This document shows positions 744-29,351 of a stretch of 64,000 nucleotides of DNA, piece by piece (positions within the stretch are counted from its first letter, which is position 1; each line of letters begins with the position of its first letter). The notes below the pieces were generated by a model. The model searched no databases. It was not told the DNA's origin and saw only the letters and a program-made list of their open reading frames with translations. The position numbers were made by a program, and so were the translations under genes. Source of the stretch: a virus (lineage: Duplodnaviria; Caudoviricetes); the IMG/VR virus record IMGVR_UViG_3300025401_000648; one strand, 5' to 3'.

Positions 744-2178
744 ACAACCAAAACCCAATTACGATTACAACATGCAACGGCTCTACTTGGAAATGTTTCT
801 AAGTGATGCTGAAACTTTTATCAGATGCCAAAATATTTTTGATCCTGAAAACTTTGATCAAAAATTACAAACAGCCGCTGAATTTATTACCAAATATGTA
901 GATGAATATAAGGTCATGCCTGAAGTCAGTATTGTTAATGCCAGTACAAGAAGTGACTTTGCCTCAGTGACTTTGGAACGTGAAAACTATGACTGGCTGT
1001 TAAATGAATTTGAGCAGTTCAGTAGACACAAAGGCTTAGAGCGAGCAATTATTGCTTCTAGCGATTTATTGGAAACTGGTGATTATGGCCCAGTGGAAAA
1101 ATTGATCAAAGATGCTATACAGGTTAGCCTTAGCAGAGACATGGGCACTGACTATTTTGCTGATCCTAGAAGCCGACTGAGCAAGCTCAAAGACAATAAT
1201 GGACAAATTAGCACAGGATGGCCCAGCATTGATAAGAAATTGTATGGTGGATTTAACCGTGGCGAGTTGAATATTTTCTGTGCTGGATCAGGTGGCGGTA
1301 AGAGTTTGTTCTTGGCCAATATGGGTGTTAACTGGGCCTTGGCCGGATTAAATGTTATCTACTTGACATTTGAATTGAGTGAAGGCTTGGTCAGTATGCG
1401 ATTAGATAGTATGACTACTGGCATTAGTACTAGAGACATTTTCCGTAACATTGATGATGTGGAACTCAAGGTTAAAATGCTGGAAAAACGCAGTGGACAC
1501 CTACAAGTTAAGTATATGCCTAGTGGTAAAAATTGTAACGATATTCGGGCCTATTTGAAGGAATATCAGATCAAAACAGGGGTAAAACCAGACGTTTTAC
1601 TCATAGATTACCTCGATTTAATGATGCCTTTGTCAGTGAAGGTAAGTCCCAGCGATTTGTTTGTTAAAGACAAATATGTGTCAGAAGAGATTCGTAATTT
1701 GGCCATGGAAACACAATGTATTACGGTAACGGCTAGTCAGTTGAATCGTAGTGCTGTGGAAGAAATTGAGTTTGACCATAGTCATATTTCGGGTGGTTTG
1801 AGTAAGATCATGACAGCAGATAACGTGATTGGTATCTTTACAAGTCGTGCTATGAAGGAACGTGGACGCTATCAAATCCAGTTTATGAAGACACGTAGTT
1901 CAAGCGGTGTGGGACAAAAAGTTGAATTAGAGTTTAACTTGGATACATTACGCATTACTGACTGTGAAGAAGAACAGGAAGGCAGTTTTAATCAACAGCG
2001 TCAGAACAGTCCATCAAATAGTGTTATTGATGGGCTAAAACGTACTAGTCAAGTCAGCACTAGCACTGAACGAAGTGATCCTAAAGAAGGCTTTGATTTT
2101 AGTAAGTTGCCCAAGCCGCGGACAAATGCTCCAGCAATTAGAAGTATGATCAGTAGTCTAAATCCAGAAAAGGATTAA
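730..2178 (+). CDS. Replicative DNA helicase, DnaB/T4 gp41-like
   Basis: Walker A GSGGGKS, Walker B LLIDYLDL, TASQLNR, QFMKTRSS; overlaps primase end. Confidence 0.93.
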   Translation: MSKNKQPKPNYDYNMQRLYLEMFLSDAETFIRCQNIFDPENFDQKLQTAAEFITKYVDEYKVMPEVSIVNASTRSDFASVTLERENYDWLLNEFEQFSRHKGLERAIIASSDLLETGDYGPVEKLIKDAIQVSLSRDMGTDYFADPRSRLSKLKDNNGQISTGWPSIDKKLYGGFNRGELNIFCAGSGGGKSLFLANMGVNWALAGLNVIYLTFELSEGLVSMRLDSMTTGISTRDIFRNIDDVELKVKMLEKRSGHLQVKYMPSGKNCNDIRAYLKEYQIKTGVKPDVLLIDYLDLMMPLSVKVSPSDLFVKDKYVSEEIRNLAMETQCITVTASQLNRSAVEEIEFDHSHISGGLSKIMTADNVIGIFTSRAMKERGRYQIQFMKTRSSSGVGQKVELEFNLDTLRITDCEEEQEGSFNQQRQNSPSNSVIDGLKRTSQVSTSTERSDPKEGFDFSKLPKPRTNAPAIRSMISSLNPEKD

Positions 2179-2753
2179 AACCAAAGACTGGCTTGATGAT
2201 ACGCACTGGCATCAATAGCCTGTTGCCATTGATGTTCGCCACCATGCGAACTTAGTACTAGATCAACAGTAGCAGGTACAGTTTCCCAACTCATACTGTT
2301 ACGCATGATTTTTTTACTGGGACGGACTGATAGGCTTTGTGCTAGCTCAATTCCTTCCCAACTCCAGTATCCAGCACATGCCCTAAACATGCTAGGGCCT
2401 TCTCCAGCACTCAGCGCAGTGAGTACTGATATATCGTTGGTTATGGATAACTCATCATTGATAGACACTGTTGAGCGACCTGACCAATCTTTACTGTGTA
2501 TGACATGTACTCGATCTTGACCATTTGGGCCACCAAACCATATGGGATCATGGCCGTCAATATCTATACCAATTCTACTACTGATTTCTTGAAGTGTTTG
2601 GTTAGGGATGGCTTGATTAATTTGTATACCAATAGCAATGTCAGGAGTATGACTTACCACTAATATTACACCATGTTCAAGCGCATGGTGGCTGGTTCTA
2701 GGACTAGAACATAATAAGTAGCCAAAATAAGTTTTATTTTTAACTGTTGTCAT
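2175..2753 (-). CDS. yqgE: YqgE/AlgH (DUF179) family protein
   Basis: VILVVSH..GIQIN, FGGP, HVIHS, GYWSW pattern; ATG at 2753 preferred over TTG 2759. Confidence 0.75.
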   Translation of the reverse strand: MTTVKNKTYFGYLLCSSPRTSHHALEHGVILVVSHTPDIAIGIQINQAIPNQTLQEISSRIGIDIDGHDPIWFGGPNGQDRVHVIHSKDWSGRSTVSINDELSITNDISVLTALSAGEGPSMFRACAGYWSWEGIELAQSLSVRPSKKIMRNSMSWETVPATVDLVLSSHGGEHQWQQAIDASAYHQASLWF

Positions 2754-2758
2754 ATCCA

Positions 2759-2778
2759 ATATTTATTGGAATAAATAT
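2759..2778. promoter_or_regulatory. Back-to-back TAAATA late-type promoters (perfect inverted repeat)
   Basis: ATATTTATT-GG-AATAAATAT between divergent ATGs at 2753 (-) and 2785 (+); resembles T4 late consensus TATAAATA. Confidence 0.65.
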
Positions 2779-2784
2779 CCAGTC

Positions 2785-3480
2785 ATGATATCAAACGAAA
2801 TTTCTAAACCCATAGAGTATCACAAGGTGCTTAATCCCAAACTGTGGGATCACAATCGTTTAAAAAGCAATGTTAGGGGTGCCTTGTTACGTATTGCTGA
2901 AGATTTTAAAAATTATATTGAGACTCCATTTCGTGTGGTAGACATAGTGATCACTGGTGGTAATGCCAATTACAATTACACGACGCATAGCGACATTGAT
3001 CTACACCTCATAGCAGACTATGATAGTGTGGAATGCGACAGTACTGCGGCTGAATTATTTGACACCAAGAGATTATTGTACAAACGTGATTATGATATCA
3101 ATATTCACGCTGTGCCTGTAGAGTTATACGTGGAAGATAAAGATCATCCTGCTGTTAGTGGAGGGTGCTATAGTGTGTTACATGGTCGTTGGATCAAACA
3201 ACCCAACTCCAATCTTCCCGACTATGACAAAGAAAAACTAGAGCATATGGTTGCTGTATGGCATGAAATACTGAAAAATGCCACAAAGACAGGTTCTTTG
3301 GATGCATGTAGAAATGCGGTACAGCTACTACGCAAATACCGCAAGTTGGGATTACAAACTAAATCAGGAGAGTTTAGTATTCCCAATCTAGTGTACAAGA
3401 GTTTACGAAACGATCACACACTGGCAGGAATCACAATCTTAATTGATCGACTACACGATCAAGAATTAAGCCTAAAATAA
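2785..3480 (+). CDS. Nucleotidyltransferase, Pol-beta superfamily
   Basis: GGNANYNYTTHSDIDLHL (G[GS]..DxD) plus third acid in VELYVED. Confidence 0.7.
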   Translation: MISNEISKPIEYHKVLNPKLWDHNRLKSNVRGALLRIAEDFKNYIETPFRVVDIVITGGNANYNYTTHSDIDLHLIADYDSVECDSTAAELFDTKRLLYKRDYDINIHAVPVELYVEDKDHPAVSGGCYSVLHGRWIKQPNSNLPDYDKEKLEHMVAVWHEILKNATKTGSLDACRNAVQLLRKYRKLGLQTKSGEFSIPNLVYKSLRNDHTLAGITILIDRLHDQELSLK

Positions 3481-4527
3481 TTATTTGTGTTGGCTTACAA
3501 TTTCAGGCTTAATTATGGCCTGTATGCCGTAAGCATCGTTAGTCCATACAACTAGGTTTTTCAGGGCTGTTATAGTCAACATACTGTCTAATCTCTTTTG
3601 TGCTTGTCGAACTTCGTCGCCCACTAACCAAGGATATGCTCCAACTCTGCTGGTAATAATTTGTTGACTTTCTGGATCAGCAATCATCTTTCGGGCCGCG
3701 GCAATCAATCTATCCTTGTTGGGGTTATTTTTATTGACCCAAATAACTTTTTGTAATACGTCCCTATAGCTTTTGACCAATAGCCAAGCATCGTAAAACT
3801 CGCCACTAGGATCTTTGCCCCATTTGGCCTTATATGCTTCGTTAAATGTACTTTGGCCCTTGGGAAAGTTTGTATCTGAAATTAACTTGCCTGTCTTAAT
3901 GTCCATGAGTCCTGCTGAGAACCATGTTTGATTAAATGCCAATGGTTCAATTTGTTGTTTGTAGAGAAAGGGATTTTCTCTAGTAACATTTAGCTCGCCT
4001 CTGATAAATCCCAGTGCTGTTTCAGAATTTTTCATACCCCGAACATAGATAACATGTTTACGAAAACAATCCAAATAGTCTGCCATCTTGGGCAACGGTC
4101 CACAAACCATCATGGTTATGGCCATGGCATCAGGATTCATACCAGACCCTGCGGCAAACTTGATGATGTTTTTGTAGGGGTCCTGTGTTTTATTATAGCT
4201 CACAATGATAGTTTGATTTTGTGCTAGGATAGGTTCATAGTCGTTAAAATTAAACTTAACATCTTCTAGTAGGTATGCTTCTGCTTGCCCGCCGTTGCTG
4301 TACCACATATAGGAGTCATCATAACGATATTTTTCTGCCCATTTGTTGCCGGCAGGAATATCTCGAGCGCCCTGTATAATTTCTGATCGAATAGGCTCGC
4401 CCAAGGCCTTGGCCAGTTCTGGAATAACCACAGTGGGCCACCCGGTGGCGCTGGGTACTACCACAGTCATATCTGCCAGTGCCAAATTACAGGCACAGAA
4501 TAAAATAATTAGTAAAAGTTTCTTCAT
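3481..4527 (-). CDS. tctC: Periplasmic substrate-binding protein, TctC/Bug-like
   Basis: Signal peptide MKKLLLIILFCACNLALA; TVVVP..G, I.GA..IPAGN, GELNVTRE; adjacent to TctA. Confidence 0.6.
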   Translation of the reverse strand: MKKLLLIILFCACNLALADMTVVVPSATGWPTVVIPELAKALGEPIRSEIIQGARDIPAGNKWAEKYRYDDSYMWYSNGGQAEAYLLEDVKFNFNDYEPILAQNQTIIVSYNKTQDPYKNIIKFAAGSGMNPDAMAITMMVCGPLPKMADYLDCFRKHVIYVRGMKNSETALGFIRGELNVTRENPFLYKQQIEPLAFNQTWFSAGLMDIKTGKLISDTNFPKGQSTFNEAYKAKWGKDPSGEFYDAWLLVKSYRDVLQKVIWVNKNNPNKDRLIAAARKMIADPESQQIITSRVGAYPWLVGDEVRQAQKRLDSMLTITALKNLVVWTNDAYGIQAIIKPEIVSQHK

Positions 4528-4533
4528 TTGTCC

Positions 4534-5991
4534 TCAATGATAGTTAATGGTTGTGCGGTTAAAAAATAACCCGTATACTAGTATTATTACACCAAAAGCA
4601 AGCAGACACAAACTAATTGGATGATGCAGGAGATCTTGAAATTTATACAGTGCCAAAAATTGCCCTGTGGTTAGTTCCAATCTATGACTAAGAGTAAAGC
4701 CTATGATAAAACTGATCCTACTGATTTTGAAATATTTAAAACATAGTCCCACTGCGGTCATTATGGACAATATGGCATAATCCTCCCAGCCGCCTGTATA
4801 GTCGACGCAGGACCAAACAATCAAGGCAATCAAAGGGGCCGCCCAATACTTAAAGGGCACACGGGTTATTGCTGTGGCATATTTTATGAACGCTATACTG
4901 ATAAAAAATGTTAGAACCAAACTTAGCATGAAACCAAAACTCAAGGCATCAAAAAATTTGTGATTTGACAGCAGTGTTTGGCTTCCTAGATCCAATCCCA
5001 CATAGGCCAGTAGGCTCATAACCACTGCTTCAAAAGGAGCCGCAGGTACACCAAACAATACCGTGGGCACATAGGCAGTGGCCTTTTGAGCCAGTGTGGC
5101 ACCCTCAGGACCAATTACACCTTTGACATTGCCTGATCCAAAAGGCATGGTTTCATTTTTGTTTGTGGCCACAGTTTGTCCATAGCTTAACCAATCCACA
5201 ATAGCCCCGCCTATACCAGGCAGTATACCAATTACCCCACCTATGATTCCACCTCTGACACTGATCCATCGGTTCGCCCACCAATCCCCAAATCCTTGTC
5301 GTATTTGTAGCCAATTATCTTGAGATGACTGTAGGTATGTGGTTTTAATTCTAACAGCGTTTATGATTTCAGGCAGTGCCATCAACCCTGCCATGACTGG
5401 AGCAAATTGTATACCATCGGCTAGATAAAACCAGCCACCAGTAAATCGTTCAGCGTTAGTCACAGGATCAGTACCAATCGATCCAGCAAATATACCCAAT
5501 ACCAGTCCCAGTATACCTCTTGCCCAATACTGACTGCTTAAGAAACAGATGCTGGTAACAGCCAAGATTAAAAATGCCCACTGTTCAGGTATACCAAAAC
5601 TCAACACCACATTGGCATAGTAGGGCAATAGTAAAATAGTTAACGTTCCCCATACTACGCCCTGACTCACTGAACTAAACACACTGGCACTCATGGCTCT
5701 GGCAGCTTCACCGCGTTGAGCCATGGGATATCCATCCACCATGGTGGCAGCACTACCCCCGCCTCCTGGTATGTTCATGACCACACTGGCAAACAGATCG
5801 CCCACACTGGCTGATACAACCACGGCAGTGGTAAACACAATAAGACTGTAGGGGTCGCCTCGGAAATAGGATATAAAACTATAGATAGTCAGCAAGGCTG
5901 TGCCGGCACCTGCCACAGGAATAATGCCAAACACAAATCCATATAGAGTGCCCAATAACAGCCAAGGTGTATATTGAATTACAAAGTCCAT
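4534..5991 (-). CDS. tctA: Tripartite tricarboxylate transporter large permease, TctA family
   Basis: 485-aa multi-TM protein; G.VFGIIPVAG, NIPG...SAAT.VDGYPMA.RGEA, GVIGILPGIGG, G...GVIGPE. Confidence 0.85.
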   Translation of the reverse strand: MDFVIQYTPWLLLGTLYGFVFGIIPVAGAGTALLTIYSFISYFRGDPYSLIVFTTAVVVSASVGDLFASVVMNIPGGGGSAATMVDGYPMAQRGEAARAMSASVFSSVSQGVVWGTLTILLLPYYANVVLSFGIPEQWAFLILAVTSICFLSSQYWARGILGLVLGIFAGSIGTDPVTNAERFTGGWFYLADGIQFAPVMAGLMALPEIINAVRIKTTYLQSSQDNWLQIRQGFGDWWANRWISVRGGIIGGVIGILPGIGGAIVDWLSYGQTVATNKNETMPFGSGNVKGVIGPEGATLAQKATAYVPTVLFGVPAAPFEAVVMSLLAYVGLDLGSQTLLSNHKFFDALSFGFMLSLVLTFFISIAFIKYATAITRVPFKYWAAPLIALIVWSCVDYTGGWEDYAILSIMTAVGLCFKYFKISRISFIIGFTLSHRLELTTGQFLALYKFQDLLHHPISLCLLAFGVIILVYGLFFNRTTINYH

Positions 5992-6527
5992 TATCTAAGA
6001 CGCCACTCAGCGTAGATTCGATTGGTTTGATCCCATCGCAATTCCACAATTTTAAAACCAAACACATCGGCAAGTCTAATATGTTCTTCAAAAGACCAAG
6101 GATAAAAATCAATTAGTTCAGTTTCCACAGCACCGTGGTCTTGGACTCCAGGATTACAACGCCAATATATTCTTCCCTTGGGTAACAGTAGATTTTTTAC
6201 TAGGCCAATTTGATTTTCTATGGTTTCCCTTGATCCAAAGTTTATGCTGCCAAGACAAAATGCCACATTGAACTGCTCTCGATTGACTCGAGCAAATTCC
6301 TCCAAGGTCAGTCTATGATCTGCCTCATCAAAAGCAGGATCTATGCCTATTAGATTAGGTATAAGTTTTTTGAAATGATTTCGACCACAACCAATGTCTA
6401 TAACTTGCTCATTGGCGTTAATACGACTGGCCAGTTGTAGCCCAGAATAAATGACCCTGTCTATGTTGCTGATAGGCAGTGTGCTCCAGACTTCTCTGAA
6501 ATAATGTGTTAGTTCCTGTTGATTCAT
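5991..6527 (-). CDS. Class I SAM-dependent methyltransferase
   Basis: Motif I VIDIGCG, LIGIDP, FCLGSINF. Confidence 0.75.
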   Translation of the reverse strand: MNQQELTHYFREVWSTLPISNIDRVIYSGLQLASRINANEQVIDIGCGRNHFKKLIPNLIGIDPAFDEADHRLTLEEFARVNREQFNVAFCLGSINFGSRETIENQIGLVKNLLLPKGRIYWRCNPGVQDHGAVETELIDFYPWSFEEHIRLADVFGFKIVELRWDQTNRIYAEWRLR

Positions 6528-7126
6528 GCAATCCGTACATGTGTGTCATTGGCAATGAAATCTAAAAATTCTTTTGGCGGGGTGATGCCAAGAATTCGGC
6601 ATAGTTCATGATTGTCCCTGATGTCATTACCTGTCCAATATTTTAACAGACAATAGTTCTGAAGAGCAATATGTTTGGACATCGTGTCTAAATCTCGATA
6701 GAATTGATAGTTGGGATAGGTGATATTGAATTCACCGCATTTTATCCACCAATCCAAACAATCGCGGTCATTACGGTAGACTAGAACTATGGGGCAGTCG
6801 GGCCAGTTAGCCCTCAAAAAATCTATATGATAAACAAAATGATGACAGCGTATGATGCGTATACCCTGTCCTGAGAAGGGGCGATCAAATTCTGCCTCGC
6901 ACTGTTCAGGCGTACGATCACTGAGTCGATCAAACCATTGCCCAAATTCCATGCCTGGATCAAAGTATGAACCACCATGAAACCCCGAAATAATTTCGGT
7001 ACCCGCATGACTGTAGGTGCGATCCTCAGTATAGTCGGTGCTGTCAATGTCCACACTGTCTTTGATCAGTCGTGGTATACTGCTCCACCTAGAGCCTGGG
7101 GCGCCGGTTACAAAGATATATTTCAT
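6524..7126 (-). CDS. P-loop / sulfotransferase-like protein
   Basis: N-terminal IFVTGAPGSRWS, later IIRCH and IVLVYR, similar to 5'-PSB/3'-PB layout; function not established. Confidence 0.45.
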   Translation of the reverse strand: MKYIFVTGAPGSRWSSIPRLIKDSVDIDSTDYTEDRTYSHAGTEIISGFHGGSYFDPGMEFGQWFDRLSDRTPEQCEAEFDRPFSGQGIRIIRCHHFVYHIDFLRANWPDCPIVLVYRNDRDCLDWWIKCGEFNITYPNYQFYRDLDTMSKHIALQNYCLLKYWTGNDIRDNHELCRILGITPPKEFLDFIANDTHVRIA

Positions 7127-7134
7127 ATCTTTAC

Positions 7135-8415
7135 TTATTGCGGGGTATCAGCTGTGGGTAAATTATCTGGAAGGGTTAGGCTACGATCTAATTCAGATCC
7201 ACGTTTATGCTGACTGAGAATTTCAGGAATATTGAACACACTGTAACTATATTGTTTGACCGTGGTCTTCATGGTTGTGTAAGTAGCACATTCAGTTTGA
7301 TAAAGAGTTTCAAAATTTGTCATGGCCCAACGTTGAAAATCTTCAGTGTTATAAAATGCTTGAAAATTATTGCCCAGAGTGTTTTTATTCATACGGACTA
7401 GATTATCCAAGTGCATTTGGTATTTGAATATGAATCTAAAGTAGCCGGCCAGTTGATATGCGTATTCAACTGTCATAGGAAACTGACTTAATTTTGGAGC
7501 CACAGCAGAATTATACAGTGCTTGACTCACTGCGGTATCACATTGATGTATTCTAGAATGATTACTTACAAAATAGTCTTCTGCGGATAGATATTTGTCC
7601 GAATCATTCACGGGTGATTTATAAAAGTCATCAATTCTCGAATCGCCCACACTGCCTTGATGACATTTAAAAAATCTCTTGCCCAAACTAAAATTGTGCT
7701 GTAGTACGGGAAACAGTTGATCATTACAGTCACCAGTGATCACAGTCCTATTGCTTACCGGTTGTTTTAAAAAGTCAAAATGTGAGGGCATTGCATCATT
7801 AATAAGATAATTGTTCAAAGGCAGACAATCAAAATTTTGTCGTACATGGTCGTACATCTCAGGAAATTCTCTTTGGCTGTTGGCATCAAAGGCCACACTG
7901 AATTTAATATTGTTTTTGACCAAGGCAGCAAGTATGGCTGTGGAGTCAATACCTCCGCTCCACATGACCACAGGATTCAAATTAGCATAGCTACCAGCAG
8001 TCTCATCCATGATCTCTGCGTAGGTCTTGGCAGTGTAAGTGTCAGACGGTATGGTAATTGGTGATCCGGATAAAAATATTCCTGAACGGTCAGTGAAATT
8101 ATCAGCAGGGTATCTACGCACAGGCAACAAGATCAAGGACCTATAGATTTGATTGAATTCTGAATCATTTTGAATACATTCAGCATCTAATGCCAAATCT
8201 GACATTTCTCTGTCGTCAGTGACGTCATATATGCTGACCAACTGTGTTCTTGGATCCTGAAGATCTCCCAATAATACCAAATCCACAGGATCAGTGAGTA
8301 CAGTGGCAGCAGGTACATAGGTCAAAATATTACCCATATAGACCTTGATTTCGTAGTCCTGGGCATTGGATAGTGACGCAACCTGCTGACGAAGAAGATC
8401 TAATGTATCTGACAT
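7135..8415 (-). CDS. PP-loop ATPase, asparagine-synthase C-terminal-like (no Ntn glutaminase domain)
   Basis: VMWSGGIDST PP-loop and VITGDCNDQLF motif; about 110-aa unrelated N-terminal domain. Confidence 0.65.
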   Translation of the reverse strand: MSDTLDLLRQQVASLSNAQDYEIKVYMGNILTYVPAATVLTDPVDLVLLGDLQDPRTQLVSIYDVTDDREMSDLALDAECIQNDSEFNQIYRSLILLPVRRYPADNFTDRSGIFLSGSPITIPSDTYTAKTYAEIMDETAGSYANLNPVVMWSGGIDSTAILAALVKNNIKFSVAFDANSQREFPEMYDHVRQNFDCLPLNNYLINDAMPSHFDFLKQPVSNRTVITGDCNDQLFPVLQHNFSLGKRFFKCHQGSVGDSRIDDFYKSPVNDSDKYLSAEDYFVSNHSRIHQCDTAVSQALYNSAVAPKLSQFPMTVEYAYQLAGYFRFIFKYQMHLDNLVRMNKNTLGNNFQAFYNTEDFQRWAMTNFETLYQTECATYTTMKTTVKQYSYSVFNIPEILSQHKRGSELDRSLTLPDNLPTADTPQ

Positions 8416-8426
8416 AATTTAATTTT

Positions 8427-8981
8427 TTAATTGTATCTAAAGGTTTGATAGCCGGAACCATTAGAATATGCGGGAGCGTATAATAGCCCTGTATTGGAAA
8501 ATCCTCCCCATTGATAATAACTGTAACCGCCACCTTGGTAATAATAATATGCGCCGCCAGGAGTGGCTGTGTAATTATAACCAGTGAGTGAGTTGAAAAA
8601 ATATCTAGGTGGATAGCCATTCATGATCAAGCCACTATAATAATAGGGGTAATAGTTGTAAACATAAATATTGAACACACTATAGCCGTTGATTGTAAAG
8701 CCAGGATTGTTATAGGTTTGAGATTGGGTGGTGGGGTTGGTGTTGCGATCACTGGTGTAATACCAATTCCAACTATAGTATAGAGTGGTACCATAACTGC
8801 GTCCGTAGAATTGGCCCATGTTGATGGCTTGGTTGGCGCTCTGCCCCACCAGTTGCTCTGGGAAGGTGTCTCCCATGGCAATACCTCCGTGATAGGCATA
8901 GAAAGCACCCAGCTCATAGCCGATGCCATTGGAGGCACCGTCGTTGCCTAATCCCAGTGTTCCGCTTGATGGTAATGTCAT
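8427..8981 (-). CDS. Putative virion protein with MTLPSSG N-terminal module and Tyr/Gly/Asn-rich C-terminus
   Basis: MTLPSSG...INMGQFYG module as in 26047; TAAATA at 8987-8992 just upstream of ATG 8981. Confidence 0.55.
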   Translation of the reverse strand: MTLPSSGTLGLGNDGASNGIGYELGAFYAYHGGIAMGDTFPEQLVGQSANQAINMGQFYGRSYGTTLYYSWNWYYTSDRNTNPTTQSQTYNNPGFTINGYSVFNIYVYNYYPYYYSGLIMNGYPPRYFFNSLTGYNYTATPGGAYYYYQGGGYSYYQWGGFSNTGLLYAPAYSNGSGYQTFRYN

Positions 8982-9006
8982 AGCAGTATTTAGCTGTGTC
9001 AATTAG

Positions 9007-9035
9007 TTGATTTTGTTCATGGGGCCCAGTATAAT
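9007..9035 (+). promoter_or_regulatory. sigma70-type promoter for the nucleotidase gene
   Basis: TTGATT-17 nt-TATAAT. Confidence 0.6.
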
Positions 9036-9070
9036 TACAGTATATAACCAAGAGAAAGAACACACAAAAT

Positions 9071-9580
9071 ATGCCCACAATCTACATAGACATGGACGGA
9101 GTGGTTGCAGACTGGGAGACCGCTGCCGAACAATTTATCCAACAGCAAAAAGACATCAACAGCCTATGGCCCGACGAGGAATGGCAACGAATACGCAGTC
9201 AAGATCATTTTTATCGGCACTTGCCAGAAATGCCCCGAGCACATGAGCTCATGGCTCTGGCTCGTAGATTTAGAGACGAATTGGGTTGGCAGTTGTGCAT
9301 GCTCACAGCCATACCACACAAAAATGACATGCATGAAGTGTTCCATGATAAAATTGATTGGATGGCCGAACGCTGGCCCGAGGTACGTGTACACTTTGGT
9401 CCCTACAGCTATGACAAACAACATCACTGTGAACCCGGGGACATCTTGGTGGATGACCGAACCAGCAACTGTTTAGAATGGCGTGCCCGGGGTGGCACGG
9501 CTGTTCAGGTCACCAAGGACTACGATCTAGCGCTACTAGAGCTGGCGGAATTATTTAGAATCATCAGGCTCGGTGCCTGA
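9071..9580 (+). CDS. 5'(3')-deoxyribonucleotidase, HAD superfamily
   Basis: IYIDMDGVVAD, ILTA-like MLTA, DK, ILVDDR motifs. Confidence 0.85.
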   Translation: MPTIYIDMDGVVADWETAAEQFIQQQKDINSLWPDEEWQRIRSQDHFYRHLPEMPRAHELMALARRFRDELGWQLCMLTAIPHKNDMHEVFHDKIDWMAERWPEVRVHFGPYSYDKQHHCEPGDILVDDRTSNCLEWRARGGTAVQVTKDYDLALLELAELFRIIRLGA

Positions 9581-9814
9581 TATTATGGCCGTGCTGGTGT
9601 CACGGTCTATTGTCATATAACCTTCACAGGTCATATTCCAGTCGTCACCACCCCCACCTGATCCTGTGACGGAATCTGTGACCGTGAGCCCTTCTATGCG
9701 GAAGTGCTTGAACAAGAACTCCCTACCGTTCTCAAACACACGCCACACATGTTCGGCAGTGCCACGTCCCGCCTGTCCACGACTCTTGTTGAATCTTATG
9801 TGATAGGTGTTCAT
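9551..9814 (-). CDS. Hypothetical phage protein
   Basis: 87-aa ORF coupled by 4-nt overlap to the upstream oxygenase. Confidence 0.6.
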   Translation of the reverse strand: MNTYHIRFNKSRGQAGRGTAEHVWRVFENGREFLFKHFRIEGLTVTDSVTGSGGGGDDWNMTCEGYMTIDRDTSTAIISGTEPDDSK

Positions 9815-10524
9815 ATGATCTCAGGCGGCTCGGGTGGGGGCAAAGGCGCCACAGCGAGATTGAAGTGTATGAAGCGTAGAGGCTTCTTACCACCGTGACG
9901 TGTAAAGCTGTGGGGCACATAGCTGTTGGTAAAGAACAACAAGCCTTCACGGGGAGCAAATATGATACTGCCACTGGCCATGGTGGCATCACGCCCATTG
10001 CGTTCAGGGAGATTGGTCATGTTCTTGCCTGGACGTGGATCGTGTAGCTGTATGATACTGGAATCCTTGGGCACGTCTAGGAAGTAAAAGCCCGATAGTT
10101 GACTGCCATGCCCATGTGTGTGATATTCCATACTGCTGTGCAGGTGATGTTCCTGGCACCATACCTCGGTCATGGCAATCTGTAGATGATCCATGGCATA
10201 GCCCTGACTGTTTAATATGTTCCAGCCAGTCTGTGCCACATAGTCCAAGAAGGGCCGTAGTGCCTCCTCGCCAGTGAGATTGGCAGTTTGATACACGGGG
10301 TATAGGGGATTGAGCTTGGTGCTCTTCCTAGTCAGTGACAGATGCTGTAGACTGATTCCTCGCAATGTGTCCAGGAAATCCTGTTTGACTATGGTATAGG
10401 CTCCGGTGACAAAGTGCTGATGTAGACTCAGTAGATCACCCTGCGGAGGTATTGTGGCCTCGGCTGCAGGTGTTTCACCCATGATGACTTCTGCGGTATG
10501 GTCAGTGGCAGTGGTTGATGTCAA
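9811..10524 (-). CDS. 2OG-Fe(II) oxygenase, TIGR02466-like
   Basis: HTH..SQLSGFYFLDVP, HDPRP, LLFFTNSYVPH, FN. Confidence 0.8.
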   Translation of the reverse strand: MTSTTATDHTAEVIMGETPAAEATIPPQGDLLSLHQHFVTGAYTIVKQDFLDTLRGISLQHLSLTRKSTKLNPLYPVYQTANLTGEEALRPFLDYVAQTGWNILNSQGYAMDHLQIAMTEVWCQEHHLHSSMEYHTHGHGSQLSGFYFLDVPKDSSIIQLHDPRPGKNMTNLPERNGRDATMASGSIIFAPREGLLFFTNSYVPHSFTRHGGKKPLRFIHFNLAVAPLPPPEPPEII

Positions 10525-11858: not shown

Positions 11859-12073
11859 GTCTATATTTACTCTTAGGGGCCGGTCTATGCATGCATGAAA
11901 ACCTGTGATAAAAAATAAAAACAACCTGGTGATCTAGATCTGGCGGGTTCTAATATAAGTCGGGTTTTTTTGATGAAATTTTTGGCATTGCTTTTGTTGT
12001 TTTTATACAACAGTTTAATATGCATACCAGGCCCCACCAACCAACCCACCGGTGACCCACCATGCCACCAGTC

Positions 12074-12108
12074 AAAAAAAAGCCCCGTCAACGCCAGCTC
12101 AACGGGGC
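12074..12108 (-). terminator. Rho-independent terminator closing the early minus-strand cluster
   Basis: GCCCCGT/ACGGGGC stem followed by 8 T on the minus strand. Confidence 0.8.
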
Positions 12109-12130
12109 CCAAACGCTCTACGCTAGACTC

Positions 12131-12475
12131 TTAGTCCATACGGCTACCGCTGTAGATCTTAGCCTCAGGGAATATGCTACGGAAGTAGCGAGCAAAAGCT
12201 TCTGCTCCTGCTTCCTTAACAGAGATGCTCTGCGTGGGCAAGCCTGCTGGATCCCACAAGGTCAACGTCTTAGGCCTGTAGCTCTTACGGAAGCCTGCAG
12301 CCATAAGCGCCTTTGCTTCCCGGCTGTTAGTACGCTCTACGAAGATGTCCACCCAGCCAAAGCCACAAGCGTCACGCTCGCCTACCTGCGCATACATCTG
12401 CTGGGCAGCCGCCACAGCTTCTTGTTGAGCACCCGCCACAGCAGAGATGATCTGCTCTTTAGTAAAACCTTTCAT
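12131..12475 (-). CDS. Hypothetical early protein (CGFGWV type)
   Basis: Own promoter and AAGGAG RBS; DACGFGWVDI motif. Confidence 0.75.
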   Translation of the reverse strand: MKGFTKEQIISAVAGAQQEAVAAAQQMYAQVGERDACGFGWVDIFVERTNSREAKALMAAGFRKSYRPKTLTLWDPAGLPTQSISVKEAGAEAFARYFRSIFPEAKIYSGSRMD

Positions 12476-12531
12476 ACTAGCTCCTTAGTGTGTTGTGTAA
12501 GTCTATATTATAAGGCCCTTTCGGGCCTTTG

Positions 12532-13359
12532 TCAACCGCAGATTGCGTACTCAGCCAGCTCAGCCCAGTTACGACTGCCTGCCCGGCGGATCTTGACGCA
12601 TTGGATCAGAGTACGCAGGCTCAACTCTTTCACACGGTCCTGTACCTCGGCGATCAAGTCCATGGCGTCCTCTTTGTGGACCTGTTCGTACTCGGGCATG
12701 AACTCACCACTGGTCAGTAGGTGACGCATACGTTCAACCTTTTGCTCTGTGGTCATGCTCAAGTCCACACACAGGCTTCGTGTCACAACGGCTTGATCCA
12801 ATTGTGAGGAGCTCATGTTACTGATGAAGACCACACGACCTTTGAAGAGGAATGAGTTAGGCAGGTCCTCGTCCTTAAAGTCCGCACGCCATGTCACCAC
12901 TCGCTGGCTGTATGAATCCAATGCTGTCTTCAGCAGGCTCAAGCTCACTGGATCTTTGAGTACGCTATCACAGTCGTCGAACACTAAGACTGAGTCCTTG
13001 TTTTCATACAGCAAGCGGAACAGACCCTTTGCTGTACTGTAGCCTTTGACCACTGTATAGCTCTTACGAGCGCGGATCTCACCTGCCTCTTGTAGGGTCA
13101 CGTCCGTGAAGCCCCGGGCTCGGAGTGCTTGGACCACAGTATGGCTCTTGCCAAGTCCACCGGGACCGCAGATGATCACTGACGCTTGATCACCACCAGC
13201 CACCATGTTCACCATGTCAGTGACAAAGCCAAAGCGCTGATTGATTGTGAACTTACTGGGCACCACCACATTCTTGGGTGCTGTATAAGTGATAGAGACT
13301 GGACCGCTACCATCTCTGCGTTGACGGGGTGAACCATCGTTTTTGTAACCTCTTGGCAT
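12532..13359 (-). CDS. AAA+ family ATPase
   Basis: Walker A GPGGLGKS, Walker B VLVFDDCD, FKGRVVFISN, TRS. Confidence 0.85.
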   Translation of the reverse strand: MPRGYKNDGSPRQRRDGSGPVSITYTAPKNVVVPSKFTINQRFGFVTDMVNMVAGGDQASVIICGPGGLGKSHTVVQALRARGFTDVTLQEAGEIRARKSYTVVKGYSTAKGLFRLLYENKDSVLVFDDCDSVLKDPVSLSLLKTALDSYSQRVVTWRADFKDEDLPNSFLFKGRVVFISNMSSSQLDQAVVTRSLCVDLSMTTEQKVERMRHLLTSGEFMPEYEQVHKEDAMDLIAEVQDRVKELSLRTLIQCVKIRRAGSRNWAELAEYAICG

Positions 13360-26046: not shown

Positions 26047-26829
26047 ATGACTATGACTTTACCTGCATCAGGCTCACCCATTAGTTTTAGCCAAGTTGAC
26101 GTTGAATTGGGCTATACCTCATCCAACCCCTTGAGTTTGAGTTCGGCTCGACAGCTCAGTGGCGACATCACGGGTGCTATACACATGAGCGACCTCTATG
26201 GTAAAAGCTCATTTGCCCCAAGATATTTTACCTCCAGTACCACTTGGACCAGCACACAGACACTGGCATTGAAGGTTCTGTCTGTGAGTGGTGGCGCTGG
26301 TGGAGGCACGGGCGCAGGAGCAGGCGGGGGCGGTGCTGGTGAAGCTGTGACTTCCAGCACATTCCAAGTACAGACTGGGGACACTTTGATAATCACAGTG
26401 GGCCTGGGCGGCGGCATAGCTTCAAGAGGTCAAACCACCACAGTGGTCAACTCACGCACAGGTGAAACAGTCACTGGCGTATCGGGCTATCCAGGACAAG
26501 CATCACATAGTGGGGTGGGTGGTACGGGTGGTATCACCATCAGCCCCACAGGACAGACATTCTATGGTGGCACAGGATCTGCCGCTGGAGCAGGTGGCGG
26601 GGGTTCAGGCGCCGCTGGCGCTGGTCTCCCGGCGTTTGGCACTATACCTGGCTCAGGCACTGCCGCTCTAGCCATACACATCAATTCAACCACAACCATT
26701 TATGTGAGTGCGGGTGGATCAGGACTAGCACCTGGAGTCGGCGTGGGCTCAGCAGGCTTGGATAACACTGGATCGGGTGGCGATGGCAACAGCCCAGGCG
26801 CTTCGGGTCTAGTGGTTCTTTATACATAA
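26047..26829 (+). CDS. Gly-rich virion/tail-associated protein
   Basis: MTLPASG..ISFSQVDVELG..MSDLYGKS module followed by a Gly-rich domain. Confidence 0.7.
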   Translation: MTMTLPASGSPISFSQVDVELGYTSSNPLSLSSARQLSGDITGAIHMSDLYGKSSFAPRYFTSSTTWTSTQTLALKVLSVSGGAGGGTGAGAGGGGAGEAVTSSTFQVQTGDTLIITVGLGGGIASRGQTTTVVNSRTGETVTGVSGYPGQASHSGVGGTGGITISPTGQTFYGGTGSAAGAGGGGSGAAGAGLPAFGTIPGSGTAALAIHINSTTTIYVSAGGSGLAPGVGVGSAGLDNTGSGGDGNSPGASGLVVLYT

Positions 26830-26849: not shown

Positions 26850-29351
26850 ATGGCAAAATTACCTGGATATAGTAAAATACAACTAAGCTATCTTACCCCT
26901 GGTCAGTACTCCTATACAGTGCCTGCGGGAGTCACAACAATGAAGATTACCGCAGTGGGTGGTGGTGGTGGGGGTGGCGGCTATTTTCAAACGAATCCCT
27001 ACAGTGCTGGCGGTGGTGGCGGTGGTGGCGGTGTGGCTCATACCAACTGCTACCCAGTGACTCCAGGCGAAGTCTTGACTATTACAGTGGGCACAGGCGG
27101 CAATGGTGGTAGCGGTGGCGGGGGTAACAATGGCGGAGATACCTGTGTGAAAAAAAGCGGCGGCTGCAGCACAGTGGCTGGCTTTGGCGGCGGTGGCGGC
27201 AACGGCCCCACTGGCGGCGCAGGAGGCCTAAATAATATTTCGTCCAGCTATGGTGGCGGTACTTACTACCATAGTGGTTGTTTTCCTGGCGGTTACTGTG
27301 CGGGCGGCGGAGGGGGTGGAGCTGGTAACATTGGTGGCGCGGCTACACAGGGTAGTGGTGGCACTGGCGGTATTGGCGTATCAATATGTGTAGCTGGTAG
27401 TACCCTTACATTTGGCGGCGGAGGAGGTGGAGGCGGCTACACTACCGGTGGGGTTGCTGGTTGCGGTGGCGGCGGCCGAGGCGCCCAGGCCTATAGTGCT
27501 AATGGTAGTAGTGCTGTCAGTTCAGGCGGTGGTGGGGGTGGTGGCGGCCCTGGCTATATTTGTTGCGGACTTTATCCAGCAGGTATTGGTGGTGCTGGCT
27601 ACAATGGTGCTGTCTATATCTGTGCTCTAGCTACTCCAACCTGCTGTATATCATTTGCGGAAATCAGCTGTACATTCCACGTTCCAGGCTATAGCCCAGG
27701 CACCAACGGAGTTAGACGCTTTTACAGTAGCAACAACGATGCCGCTACTTTCACCTATACAGTTCCCGCAGGTGTTAATAGCTTAAATGTTGTATTAGTT
27801 GCTGGTGGGGGTGGTGGGGGCGGCACCAGCGGCAATACCAGTTTTTATCCAGGTGGTGGGGGTGGAGCTGGAAATAGTAGTCAAATTTGTTCTTATGCTG
27901 TTACCCCAGGCGAAGTGCTGACAATTCAAATAGGCGGTGGAGGCTACGGTGGCACTACTGGTAGTGGAGGTACAGGTGGAGTGACCAGTATCATCAAATC
28001 CAAAGGCGCAGGCCTTTTCTGTCAGCAGGGCGGCGTTGGCGGAAGCGCAGTGTCTGGTTGCTATGCGGGGGGAGGTGGATCCTTCAGCGCGGGTGGCGCA
28101 GGCTACCCTGGCAATGTTGGTGCTGGTGATTCTTCTGGCGGAGGTGGTGGTGGAACGTGGTGTTACCACCCAGGATGCTGTCATGCTACCCTTCACCCTG
28201 GTTGCCCTGGTACTAACAGTAACGGCGGTAATGGTGGCATAGGCAGAATCTACAGCTTGCCTGGACTTACGATCTATACTGGTGGTGGCGGCGGCGGGGG
28301 TGGTTATCTTTCGGGTGGCGCTGCCAGCAGTGGCTACGGTGCTGGCTGTGGCGGACACTACAATGGAGGAACTGGTAATGGCGCATCGGCACGTGTTGGG
28401 TCAGGTAGTGGAGGCGGCGGTGGCGCCCCTGGTGTGTGTTGCGGTTGCAGCCAAACTCGTGGGGGTAAAGGTGGTCAAGGAGGCAGCGGAGCTGTTTATC
28501 TCTATGCGGCAGGCAGTGGAGGCTCAAGTCCTGATGTGTATTTTTCCAACTACTATAGAAATGGTGCGCTAGTGCCCTGTATACCACAAAATTCCAAAAT
28601 ACCTACCAGCGGACAACTTCAAATTTGTGAGTTCTACGGGGCAGAAAATACTTTCGCCTACACATATTATCTCCCGGCCTGCAGCTATGCCTACAATCTA
28701 TGTTTACCCTGTGCGGCTTCGTCATCAGGTGCTAATATAGCCTGTACCGTTACCCCAGTTTATGCCAATATCGTAATATGTGGAGTACTTGGATCCAATA
28801 TAAACGGGCAGGCTGCACTCAAAATTGGTCCTAGTTCATCTTGGGGTATACCACCTATTGTTAAAATCACAGTGGGCAGTAAGGGTGTTATCACAGGTCG
28901 AGGTGGTAGTTATATTAATGGCGTTCAATCGCCCACTGCGGCCATATGTTTTATCTGTGGCACCAATACCATTGTGACCAATAATGGTATCATACAGGGA
29001 GGCGCTGGTGGGTCATGTCAAAGCTATGGATTTGCCGCTGGGGCAGGGTATGCCTACGGATTGGGACATTTGGGAAATAGTGGGCATGGCAATTATAACA
29101 GTACCTTGTTCAGTGGTGGAGCTTATCAAATCGTGGATACACGTGGTAAGAAGGGTGGCGGATACTACACAGGCGGATGCGGTGGTGGTTGGGTAGCTGC
29201 CGCCTGTCAAAGTAGTAATACCAATGGTTATGGTGGTAGCGGACAAGCACCTGCCGCGGCATTTTCCTCATCCAATGGTAAATCGCCCAGTAGCATTACA
29301 TTTGCGACCAAGGGAGATATTCGTGGTGTCTGTGGTCTAGGCCGTATATAA
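26850..29351 (+). CDS. Gly- and Cys-rich tail-associated protein with a duplicated YTVPAGV/GGGGGG domain
   Basis: Two YTVPAGV...GGGGGG...VTPGEVLTI repeats; internal YYRNG..VP..IPTSG..EFYG module. Confidence 0.7.
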   Translation: MAKLPGYSKIQLSYLTPGQYSYTVPAGVTTMKITAVGGGGGGGGYFQTNPYSAGGGGGGGGVAHTNCYPVTPGEVLTITVGTGGNGGSGGGGNNGGDTCVKKSGGCSTVAGFGGGGGNGPTGGAGGLNNISSSYGGGTYYHSGCFPGGYCAGGGGGGAGNIGGAATQGSGGTGGIGVSICVAGSTLTFGGGGGGGGYTTGGVAGCGGGGRGAQAYSANGSSAVSSGGGGGGGGPGYICCGLYPAGIGGAGYNGAVYICALATPTCCISFAEISCTFHVPGYSPGTNGVRRFYSSNNDAATFTYTVPAGVNSLNVVLVAGGGGGGGTSGNTSFYPGGGGGAGNSSQICSYAVTPGEVLTIQIGGGGYGGTTGSGGTGGVTSIIKSKGAGLFCQQGGVGGSAVSGCYAGGGGSFSAGGAGYPGNVGAGDSSGGGGGGTWCYHPGCCHATLHPGCPGTNSNGGNGGIGRIYSLPGLTIYTGGGGGGGGYLSGGAASSGYGAGCGGHYNGGTGNGASARVGSGSGGGGGAPGVCCGCSQTRGGKGGQGGSGAVYLYAAGSGGSSPDVYFSNYYRNGALVPCIPQNSKIPTSGQLQICEFYGAENTFAYTYYLPACSYAYNLCLPCAASSSGANIACTVTPVYANIVICGVLGSNINGQAALKIGPSSSWGIPPIVKITVGSKGVITGRGGSYINGVQSPTAAICFICGTNTIVTNNGIIQGGAGGSCQSYGFAAGAGYAYGLGHLGNSGHGNYNSTLFSGGAYQIVDTRGKKGGGYYTGGCGGGWVAAACQSSNTNGYGGSGQAPAAAFSSSNGKSPSSITFATKGDIRGVCGLGRI

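Follow-up and report, generated by a model that had tools for sequence, protein, structure and literature searches.

The stretch analyzed here (the window) is a 64,000-nt sequence of a virus of the Caudoviricetes, IMG/VR record IMGVR_UViG_3300025401_000648. Its minus strand carries six co-directional open reading frames (ORFs) with successive gaps of 11, 8, −4, −1, and 6 nt. They encode a tyrosine-rich protein, a predicted adenylating ligase of the AsnB type, a sulfotransferase-fold protein, a predicted methyltransferase dependent on S-adenosylmethionine (SAM), a TctA permease belonging to the family of tripartite tricarboxylate transporters (TTT), and a predicted periplasmic binding protein of the TctC/Bug fold (Table 1). 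A first-pass annotation of the same DNA had described this layout, and our ORF positions agree with its coordinates and gaps; its six gene identifications also stand. The window comes from a giant phage of lake water that has not been cultured. Contigs bearing its proteins reach 241,628 bp, and a DnaB-type helicase, an ATP-dependent ligase, and several tail-fibre proteins are among its other gene products. The stretch is found almost intact in many metagenomes, namely in 20 sequencing runs, 19 of which are 2017 freshwater metagenomes, while no DNA matches to it were found among cultured phages (INPHARED, used for all comparisons with cultured phages below).

Table 1. Positions of the cassette genes and of other features of the window mentioned in the text.
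Feature	Position	Strand	Basis or remark
TAAATA box	8987..8992	−	5 nt before the ATG of the tyrosine-rich protein gene; candidate T4-late-type promoter element
Tyrosine-rich protein, 184 amino acids (aa)	8427..8981	−	Candidate tail-fibre or adhesin-type protein; N-terminal module and variable C-terminal part
Predicted AsnB-type PP-loop adenylating ligase, 426 aa	7135..8415	−	SGGIDS motif, AlphaFold2 (AF2) model, VIA-align
Sulfotransferase-fold protein, 200 aa	6524..7126	−	Atlas structure matches
Predicted class I SAM-dependent methyltransferase, 178 aa	5991..6527	−	Motif I, profile matches
TctA permease, TTT family, 485 aa	4534..5991	−	PF01970
Predicted TctC/Bug-fold periplasmic binding protein, 348 aa	3481..4527	−	Signal peptide, AF2/Foldseek
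Protein with the N-terminal module and a glycine-rich domain	26047..26829	+	Gly_rich_2 near threshold, E = 1.6e-4
833-aa Gly_rich_2 protein	26850..29351	+	Gly_rich_2, E = 1e-24; weak match to a tail-fibre-assembly PHROG; directly downstream of 26047..26829

A two-part transporter of the TTT family

As in TTT transporters (TC 2.A.80), the permease of the window is a full-length match to PF01970 (E = 6.4e-81, profile positions 3–422 of 423, that is, 420/423), with multiple hydrophobic segments in a hydropathy scan, and a secreted TctC/Bug-fold protein is encoded alongside. Its phage homologues are 57–72% identical and each of them adjoins a TctC-like gene. Among cultured phages, TctA has only matches of 24–29% identity, mostly from fragmentary unannotated records.

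The binding protein carries a signal peptide, the mature part being about residues 19–348, and two of its cysteines are invariant. A Foldseek search of the PDB with its AF2 model, built with 37 homologues (predicted local distance difference test score, pLDDT, 91.7), yielded the TTT binding proteins MatC, BugE, BugD, TBP, TphC, and AdpC as the best matches, and its sequence profile matches the BugD and TctC chains at E of about 1e-3. Hence the model predicts a TctC/Bug-fold periplasmic binding protein, albeit a highly divergent one: unlike the binding proteins of known TTT systems, it has no match to PF03401, and it belongs to a viral family of over 600 clusters (more than 622, all metagenomic and without a Pfam domain), the closest Atlas clusters being viral. 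A further difference is that the clade of the window's protein lacks five residues of the first glycine-rich ligand-binding loop. Finally, the phage transporter is linked to genes of tailoring enzymes instead of the TctDE regulator.

TctB, the third component, is a poorly conserved protein with four transmembrane (TM) segments whose function is not known, and there are archaea with TctA alone (PMC5812351). Its absence from the operon, pointed out in the first-pass annotation, is borne out by our data. No TctB-like ORF with four TM segments lies in or beside the operon, into which no further gene would fit; the window's one small four-TM ORF is 30 kb away, and there is no consistent small multi-TM ORF adjoining TctA across 27 related phage loci. 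Taken together with the archaea that have TctA alone, this suggests that the combination of TctA and TctC without TctB is a feature of this viral lineage. A TctB copy may be encoded elsewhere in the 241-kb genome, or the TctB of the host may be used. TTT transporters are described as three-part systems with a small TctB that has no known role. A large lineage, exclusively viral, that has retained TctA and a TctC-fold protein without TctB offers a natural experiment on the need for TctB.

In the literature, we found only passing mentions of viral tctA, with a domain match and the role unknown: Roux et al. (2014, PMC4164917) reported tctA on SUP05 viral contigs, classing it as a putative auxiliary metabolic gene, and it is listed in PMC6359870. 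That report, like ours, deals with a TctA-domain gene on uncultured phage contigs, but it contains a domain match only, without the binding protein, the absence of TctB, or linked enzymes, whereas the present analysis defines both genes of the transporter and the partner genes conserved with them. We found no description of a TctB-less two-gene transporter, of its viral binding-protein family, or of its linkage to ligase, sulfotransferase-fold, methyltransferase, and tyrosine-rich protein genes. All parts of the cassette belong to known superfamilies.

The modifying enzymes, the tyrosine-rich protein, and the TAAATA box

The ligase carries an SGGIDS motif at residues 153–158 and an acidic TGDCNDQ motif at residues 227–233, which stands in the place of the catalytic motif of AsnB, presumably SGEGSDE in E. 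coli. The synthetase domain spans approximately residues 106–414. In VIA-align, the AF2 model (pLDDT 85.6) aligned with beta-lactam synthetase, human ASNS, E. coli AsnB, TsnB9, and the carbapenam synthetase CarA at Z-scores of 11–13.9 over ∼190–220 residues, compared to at most 9.3 for other PP-loop enzymes (GMP synthetase, LarE, TtuA). In addition, the protein matches Asn_synthase clusters of the Atlas. We found 228 representative relatives, and no protein match among cultured phages. From the model, this gene product is predicted to be an AsnB-type PP-loop adenylating ligase, sharing with the AsnB family the SGGxDS PP-loop and the fold of the synthetase domain (Z 11–14). Unlike that family, it has no Ntn (N-terminal nucleophile) glutaminase domain, as its N-terminus, MSDTLD, has no Cys2, its structural matches are confined to residues ∼106–414, and there is no match to glutamine amidotransferases (GATases); a domain of ∼100 aa of unassigned fold takes this place. 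It also falls below the Pfam threshold for Asn_synthase (PF00733), and its only Pfam match, to PAPS_reduct over the PP-loop, is sub-threshold.

Two simple roles of the ligase were considered and set aside. A lasso-peptide or another system of ribosomally synthesized and post-translationally modified peptides was ruled out because there is no short precursor and no leader protease: the candidate substrate has 184 aa, and the operon has no protease or transglutaminase-like gene. In lasso systems, the AsnB-like cyclase is accompanied by a short precursor made of leader and core and by a protease for the leader, whereas the constant neighbour of the phage ligase is a tyrosine-rich protein of 180–220 aa. 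A role confined to providing asparagine for an Asn-rich protein was dropped as unsupported.

Bacterial homologues of the ligase (58 loci, 20–27% identity) give no functional lead. No members of the tyrosine-rich, sulfotransferase-fold, or methyltransferase families were found at these loci, and TctC is nearby in only one of the 58. In thirteen, the homologue is paired with an unrelated cupin protein of ∼210–234 aa; in Tenacibaculum sp. MAR_2009_124, such a pair lies between two aconitase genes (locus L129, 4957–9453). Genes of radical SAM proteins recur near the cassette (L123, 3–857; L011, 5002–6417; L013, 6520–7920). The one in L123 encodes a protein with a SPASM-like cysteine motif; immediately downstream of it come a ligase homologue and then a methyltransferase-like fragment. 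Peptides are frequent targets of SPASM enzymes.

The sulfotransferase-fold protein matches Sulfotransfer_3, Sulfotransfer_1, and Sulfotransfer_4 clusters of the Atlas with TM-scores of 0.58–0.66. Faint matches to PF13469 (Sulfotransfer_3) were seen in two of 13 relatives (best E = 0.021), and a PDB profile search with the family found nothing. Sulfotransferases dependent on 3′-phosphoadenosine-5′-phosphosulfate (PAPS) have a 5′-phosphosulfate-binding loop with a catalytic lysine or arginine, and an Arg/Ser motif binding the 3′-phosphate. The window's protein has a GAPGSRWS loop, GAPGS(K/R)WS across relatives, with no lysine at the position presumed to correspond to the lysine of PKxGTTW. His50 and His95 are conserved, and an R-x-x-D motif is present in most, not all, relatives. 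These number 522 in IMG/VR; among cultured phages, only two unannotated marine single-cell virus records matched.

In the methyltransferase, motif I (V-x-D-x-GCG) is invariant, with V42, D44, G46, C47, and G48. Its profile matches to PDB methyltransferases are weak (E from 1.5e-4 to 0.1), the best ones being phosphoethanolamine N-methyltransferases (1.5e-4), and it matches Methyltransf_23 at E = 1.2e-3. We consider it a predicted small class I SAM methyltransferase.

The tyrosine-rich protein contains 18% Tyr, 16% Gly, and 10% Asn. It is comprised of a conserved N-terminal module of ∼60 aa and a C-terminal part that varies, and has ten relatives, all metagenomic. The same module heads a protein of locus L097 (8237–9280) that is above the threshold of PF05268 GP38 (E = 1.3e-5), a glycine-rich protein of locus L014 adjoining a weak GP38 match, and, in the window itself, the first protein of the Gly_rich_2 pair (Table 1), whose genes lie in a GC-rich patch (54%). 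A module common to GP38-positive and Gly_rich_2-like proteins, together with an aromatic- and glycine-rich composition reminiscent of the adhesin loops of gp38 tail-fibre tip adhesins (T2/S16-type), makes the tyrosine-rich protein a candidate tail-fibre or adhesin-type virion protein. Still, the protein itself matches neither family, and, unlike genes of gp38 adhesins, its gene is located among replication-type genes, outside the tail-fibre block.

T4-type late promoters consist of TATAAATA at about −10, without a −35 element. In full, TATAAATA has a single copy in the window, whereas at 8987–8992 there is the TAAATA core alone. The window has 32 copies of TAAATA, of which 20 are at most 60 nt upstream of an ORF start. 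In nine, the ATG of the ORF follows after 1–7 nt (at 2765, 8992, 11215, 11869, and 42590 on the minus strand and at 2772, 26040, 62556, and 62861 on the plus strand); other copies are ∼20 nt upstream of the start, with a Shine-Dalgarno sequence. Genes of the tail-fibre region are among those with an upstream TAAATA. The arrangement TAAATA-N5-ATG is kept in the homologous loci L012 and L013, the upstream DNA of L013 being otherwise unrelated. Because of this conservation, we prefer the ATG at 8981 as the start of the tyrosine-rich protein gene and have set aside the alternative TTG at 9002. The late-type motif noted in the first-pass annotation is thus present, enriched upstream of ORFs, and conserved in both homologous loci, which fits a candidate core of a T4-late-type promoter. 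The distance from TAAATA to the ATG hints at a very short or absent leader, and the nine genes with this arrangement suggest a class of late-type transcripts with almost no leader.

Co-conservation and exchange of three modules

The first-pass annotation had treated the six genes as a single system. The synteny comparison showed that they are indeed co-conserved, so the lack of co-conservation that had been named as evidence against joint function is not what we see. However, the cassette is not one fixed six-gene system. Gene neighbourhoods reveal a mosaic of three separately moving modules, and a sister phage has a three-gene version.

The first module is the transporter: TctA and the TctC-like gene were adjacent at every locus fetched via either gene. 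The second module is formed by the sulfotransferase-fold and methyltransferase genes. Seeding IMG/VR with the sulfotransferase-fold protein, we fetched the loci of 80 of its 522 relatives. The methyltransferase gene was present in 66 of them, a gene similar to cupin-type 2-oxoglutarate (2OG) oxygenases, mostly directly after the sulfotransferase-fold gene, in 74, and a class I GATase in 27. The TctA and TctC-like pair was found in 16–18 of the 80, between the methyltransferase and sulfotransferase-fold genes. Hence the sulfotransferase-fold/methyltransferase pair seems to be part of a far larger module that at some loci has taken up the transporter.

This wider module (L003, 9275–9991; L121, 9823–10599; and many other loci) has three additional genes, none of which is in the operon of the window. 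One encodes the cupin 2OG-oxygenase-like protein, which has an HxD...H motif and weak matches to Asp/Asn beta-hydroxylases; among cultured phages, this protein has one weak cyanophage match. The others encode a protein with an ExxH-type motif, ferritin-like in looks, and the class I GATase.

The third module consists of the tyrosine-rich protein and the ligase. Close homologues of the ligase, 42–60% identical, occur in the L012 group, L096, L097, L098, and the L121 group. With a hidden Markov model (HMM) of the N-terminal module, a protein of the tyrosine-rich type was detected in every one of the six lineages of this close subfamily, the window included, and each time the ligase gene directly followed it. 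The same HMM found nothing at the 80 loci seeded with the sulfotransferase-fold protein, except at L044, which is the L121 contig.

The ligase is linked to TTT binding proteins as well, and this linkage comes in three architectures. In the close relatives, the ligase is directly followed by a canonical TctC (PF03401) in the L012 group (L012, L013, L095), L096, L097, and L121, that is, in four out of four with visible downstream DNA. L121, L122, and L044 reproduce the order of the window without TctA: tyrosine-rich protein, ligase, TctC, sulfotransferase-fold protein (52%), and methyltransferase (51%). Distant homologues of the ligase (25% identity) are followed by TctC-like and TctA genes in L099 and L102; in L100, a TctC-like gene follows, with which the contig ends. 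The trio of L102 is an insertion between the terS and terL genes of a T4-like phage. The third architecture is that of the window. Given that TctC is so rare near the bacterial ligase homologues, the link between the ligase and TctC appears to be specific to phages, and it is not a general by-product of the abundance of TctC. Since the adjacency is repeated in three architectures across deep divergence, we regard functional coupling of the ligase and TctC as highly probable.

A comparison of the window with the sister phage L012 shows how the cassette moves. The two phages are 98% identical in DnaB, 92% in NT5C, 91% in NTase, and 89% in AlgH. In the same slot, L012 has a tyrosine-rich protein and a ligase only 60% identical to those of the window, then a canonical TctC at 11888–12847, and no TctA, sulfotransferase-fold, or methyltransferase gene. 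The boundaries of the exchange coincide with gene ends (L012, 9389–14153, vs. the window, 2175–9580). We conclude that the whole cassette has been exchanged as a unit at a variable site.

A proposed function and the alternatives

Other uncultured phages carry these genes in each other's company as well, so the six genes probably work together. The explanation that we tentatively prefer, giving it somewhat less than an even chance, is that the cassette links the capture of a solute to tailoring chemistry in the cytoplasm, behind a T4-late-type TAAATA box. The TctC-like protein would pass an organic anion on to TctA, which would import it; this anion, or a compound derived from it, would then be handled by the ligase, which would adenylate a carboxylate and form an amide bond, and the sulfotransferase-fold and methyltransferase enzymes would add further groups. 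The most likely acceptor would be the tyrosine-rich protein, an adhesin-like virion protein decorated late in infection. This protein is singled out as the partner or acceptor because it is strictly paired with the close ligase subfamily; as the substrate, it is a guess that may well prove wrong. The idea of import plus modification had been put forward in the first-pass annotation. It is supported in part, in that the genes are co-conserved. An extended version, in which the TctB-less importer brings in an organic anion from outside the host, the ligase and both other enzymes attach it covalently to a tyrosine-rich tail-fibre adhesin, so that a receptor-binding protein is decorated post-translationally depending on the solute, and the cassette is swapped between phages to retune host recognition, seems improbable to us.

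Several observations weigh against the preferred explanation. The proposed acceptor has no Pfam or PHROG match and matches no virion family, and proteins with its N-terminal module occur without a ligase, both in the window (26047–26829) and in L014. The trio of the distant ligase, TctC-like, and TctA genes, in turn, comes without a tyrosine-rich protein. About 78% of the 80 sampled sulfotransferase-fold/methyltransferase loci have no TTT gene at all, and the modules also occur apart from each other. As the canonical lysine of the PAPS loop seems to be missing from the sulfotransferase-fold protein, sulfation is no more than a candidate activity. The swap of the cassette at one slot in the sister phage is what would be expected of a recombination hot spot. 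Finally, there were no RNA runs among the 20 runs that contain the stretch.

Some of these observations are accommodated by an auxiliary metabolic pathway acting on a small molecule, an alternative that we consider unlikely, though it deserves serious attention. The compound imported by the TTT pair would be a carboxylate (for instance, an amino acid, a pyridine carboxylate, or a di- or tricarboxylate); the ligase would amidate it, and the two other enzymes would tailor the product, thereby feeding replication or making a metabolite; the tyrosine-rich protein would be encoded by a neighbouring structural gene. The minimal recurrent unit, in L099 and L102, is exactly the ligase with the TctC-like protein and TctA. 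Moreover, those relatives of the ligase domain that have solved structures (AsnB, beta-lactam synthetase, CarA, TsnB9) have small-molecule substrates, the known ligands of TctC proteins are small carboxylates (PMC5812351), and related loci are rich in GATases, 2OG oxygenases, and AMP-binding enzymes and include a carbamoyltransferase. On the other hand, the tyrosine-rich protein directly upstream of the ligase in six of six close lineages is hard to explain if the two are unrelated, and no substrate can be named. A lower probability still attaches to the possibility that there is no joint function, and that the genes are independent morons collected behind one promoter at a recombination-prone slot, adjacent because they share insertion sites. 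Such a process would account for the different cassette of L012 in a nearly identical surrounding, for the fact that the sulfotransferase-fold, methyltransferase, TctA, and TctC-like genes differ in order and strand from locus to locus, and for each module being found alone. It does not easily account for the same pairings at 25–60% sequence divergence and in unrelated backgrounds, including the terS–terL site of a T4-like phage, nor for the single TctC among the 58 bacterial ligase loci.

A role at the cell envelope, for example in superinfection exclusion, seems very unlikely. The binding protein and the permease would alter host uptake or signalling, the enzymes would modify envelope glycans or lipids and so block other phages, and the tyrosine-rich protein would act at the envelope. 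The unit of the tyrosine-rich protein, ligase, and TctC does have envelope-related neighbours, namely a Porin_4 gene in L013 (9334–10242) and, in L097 (4831–5367), a gene whose 178-aa product has a signal peptide and looks like a beta-barrel of the outer membrane; sugar-nucleotide enzymes are encoded nearby in L009, L011, and L012. In bacteria, AsnB-like amidotransferases and sulfotransferases tailor surface glycans. Yet the three enzymes and the tyrosine-rich protein have no signal peptide or membrane segment (as judged from the N-termini by eye; the hydropathy scan covered TctA and the TctC-like protein only), the operon of the window has no glycosyltransferase, and exclusion functions, being early as a rule, are hard to reconcile with a late-type promoter.

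The repeated pairings of the TTT binding protein with the ligase and of the ligase with the tyrosine-rich protein link four protein families that have no Pfam assignment, and so provide a handle on their function. Viromes of lakes and the sea are rich in these families: the binding protein forms more than 600 clusters, and the sulfotransferase-fold gene is found on more than 500 viral contigs. Should the adhesin-like protein be the target, as we tentatively propose, the cassette would represent a new kind of virion maturation; if it is a metabolite, a widespread unrecognised auxiliary pathway of phages.

In addition to the cassette, the window has an oxygenase gene of the 2OG-FeII_Oxy_5 family (9811–10524, minus strand; E = 7.7e-10) just past NT5C. 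This gene is 75% conserved in L012.

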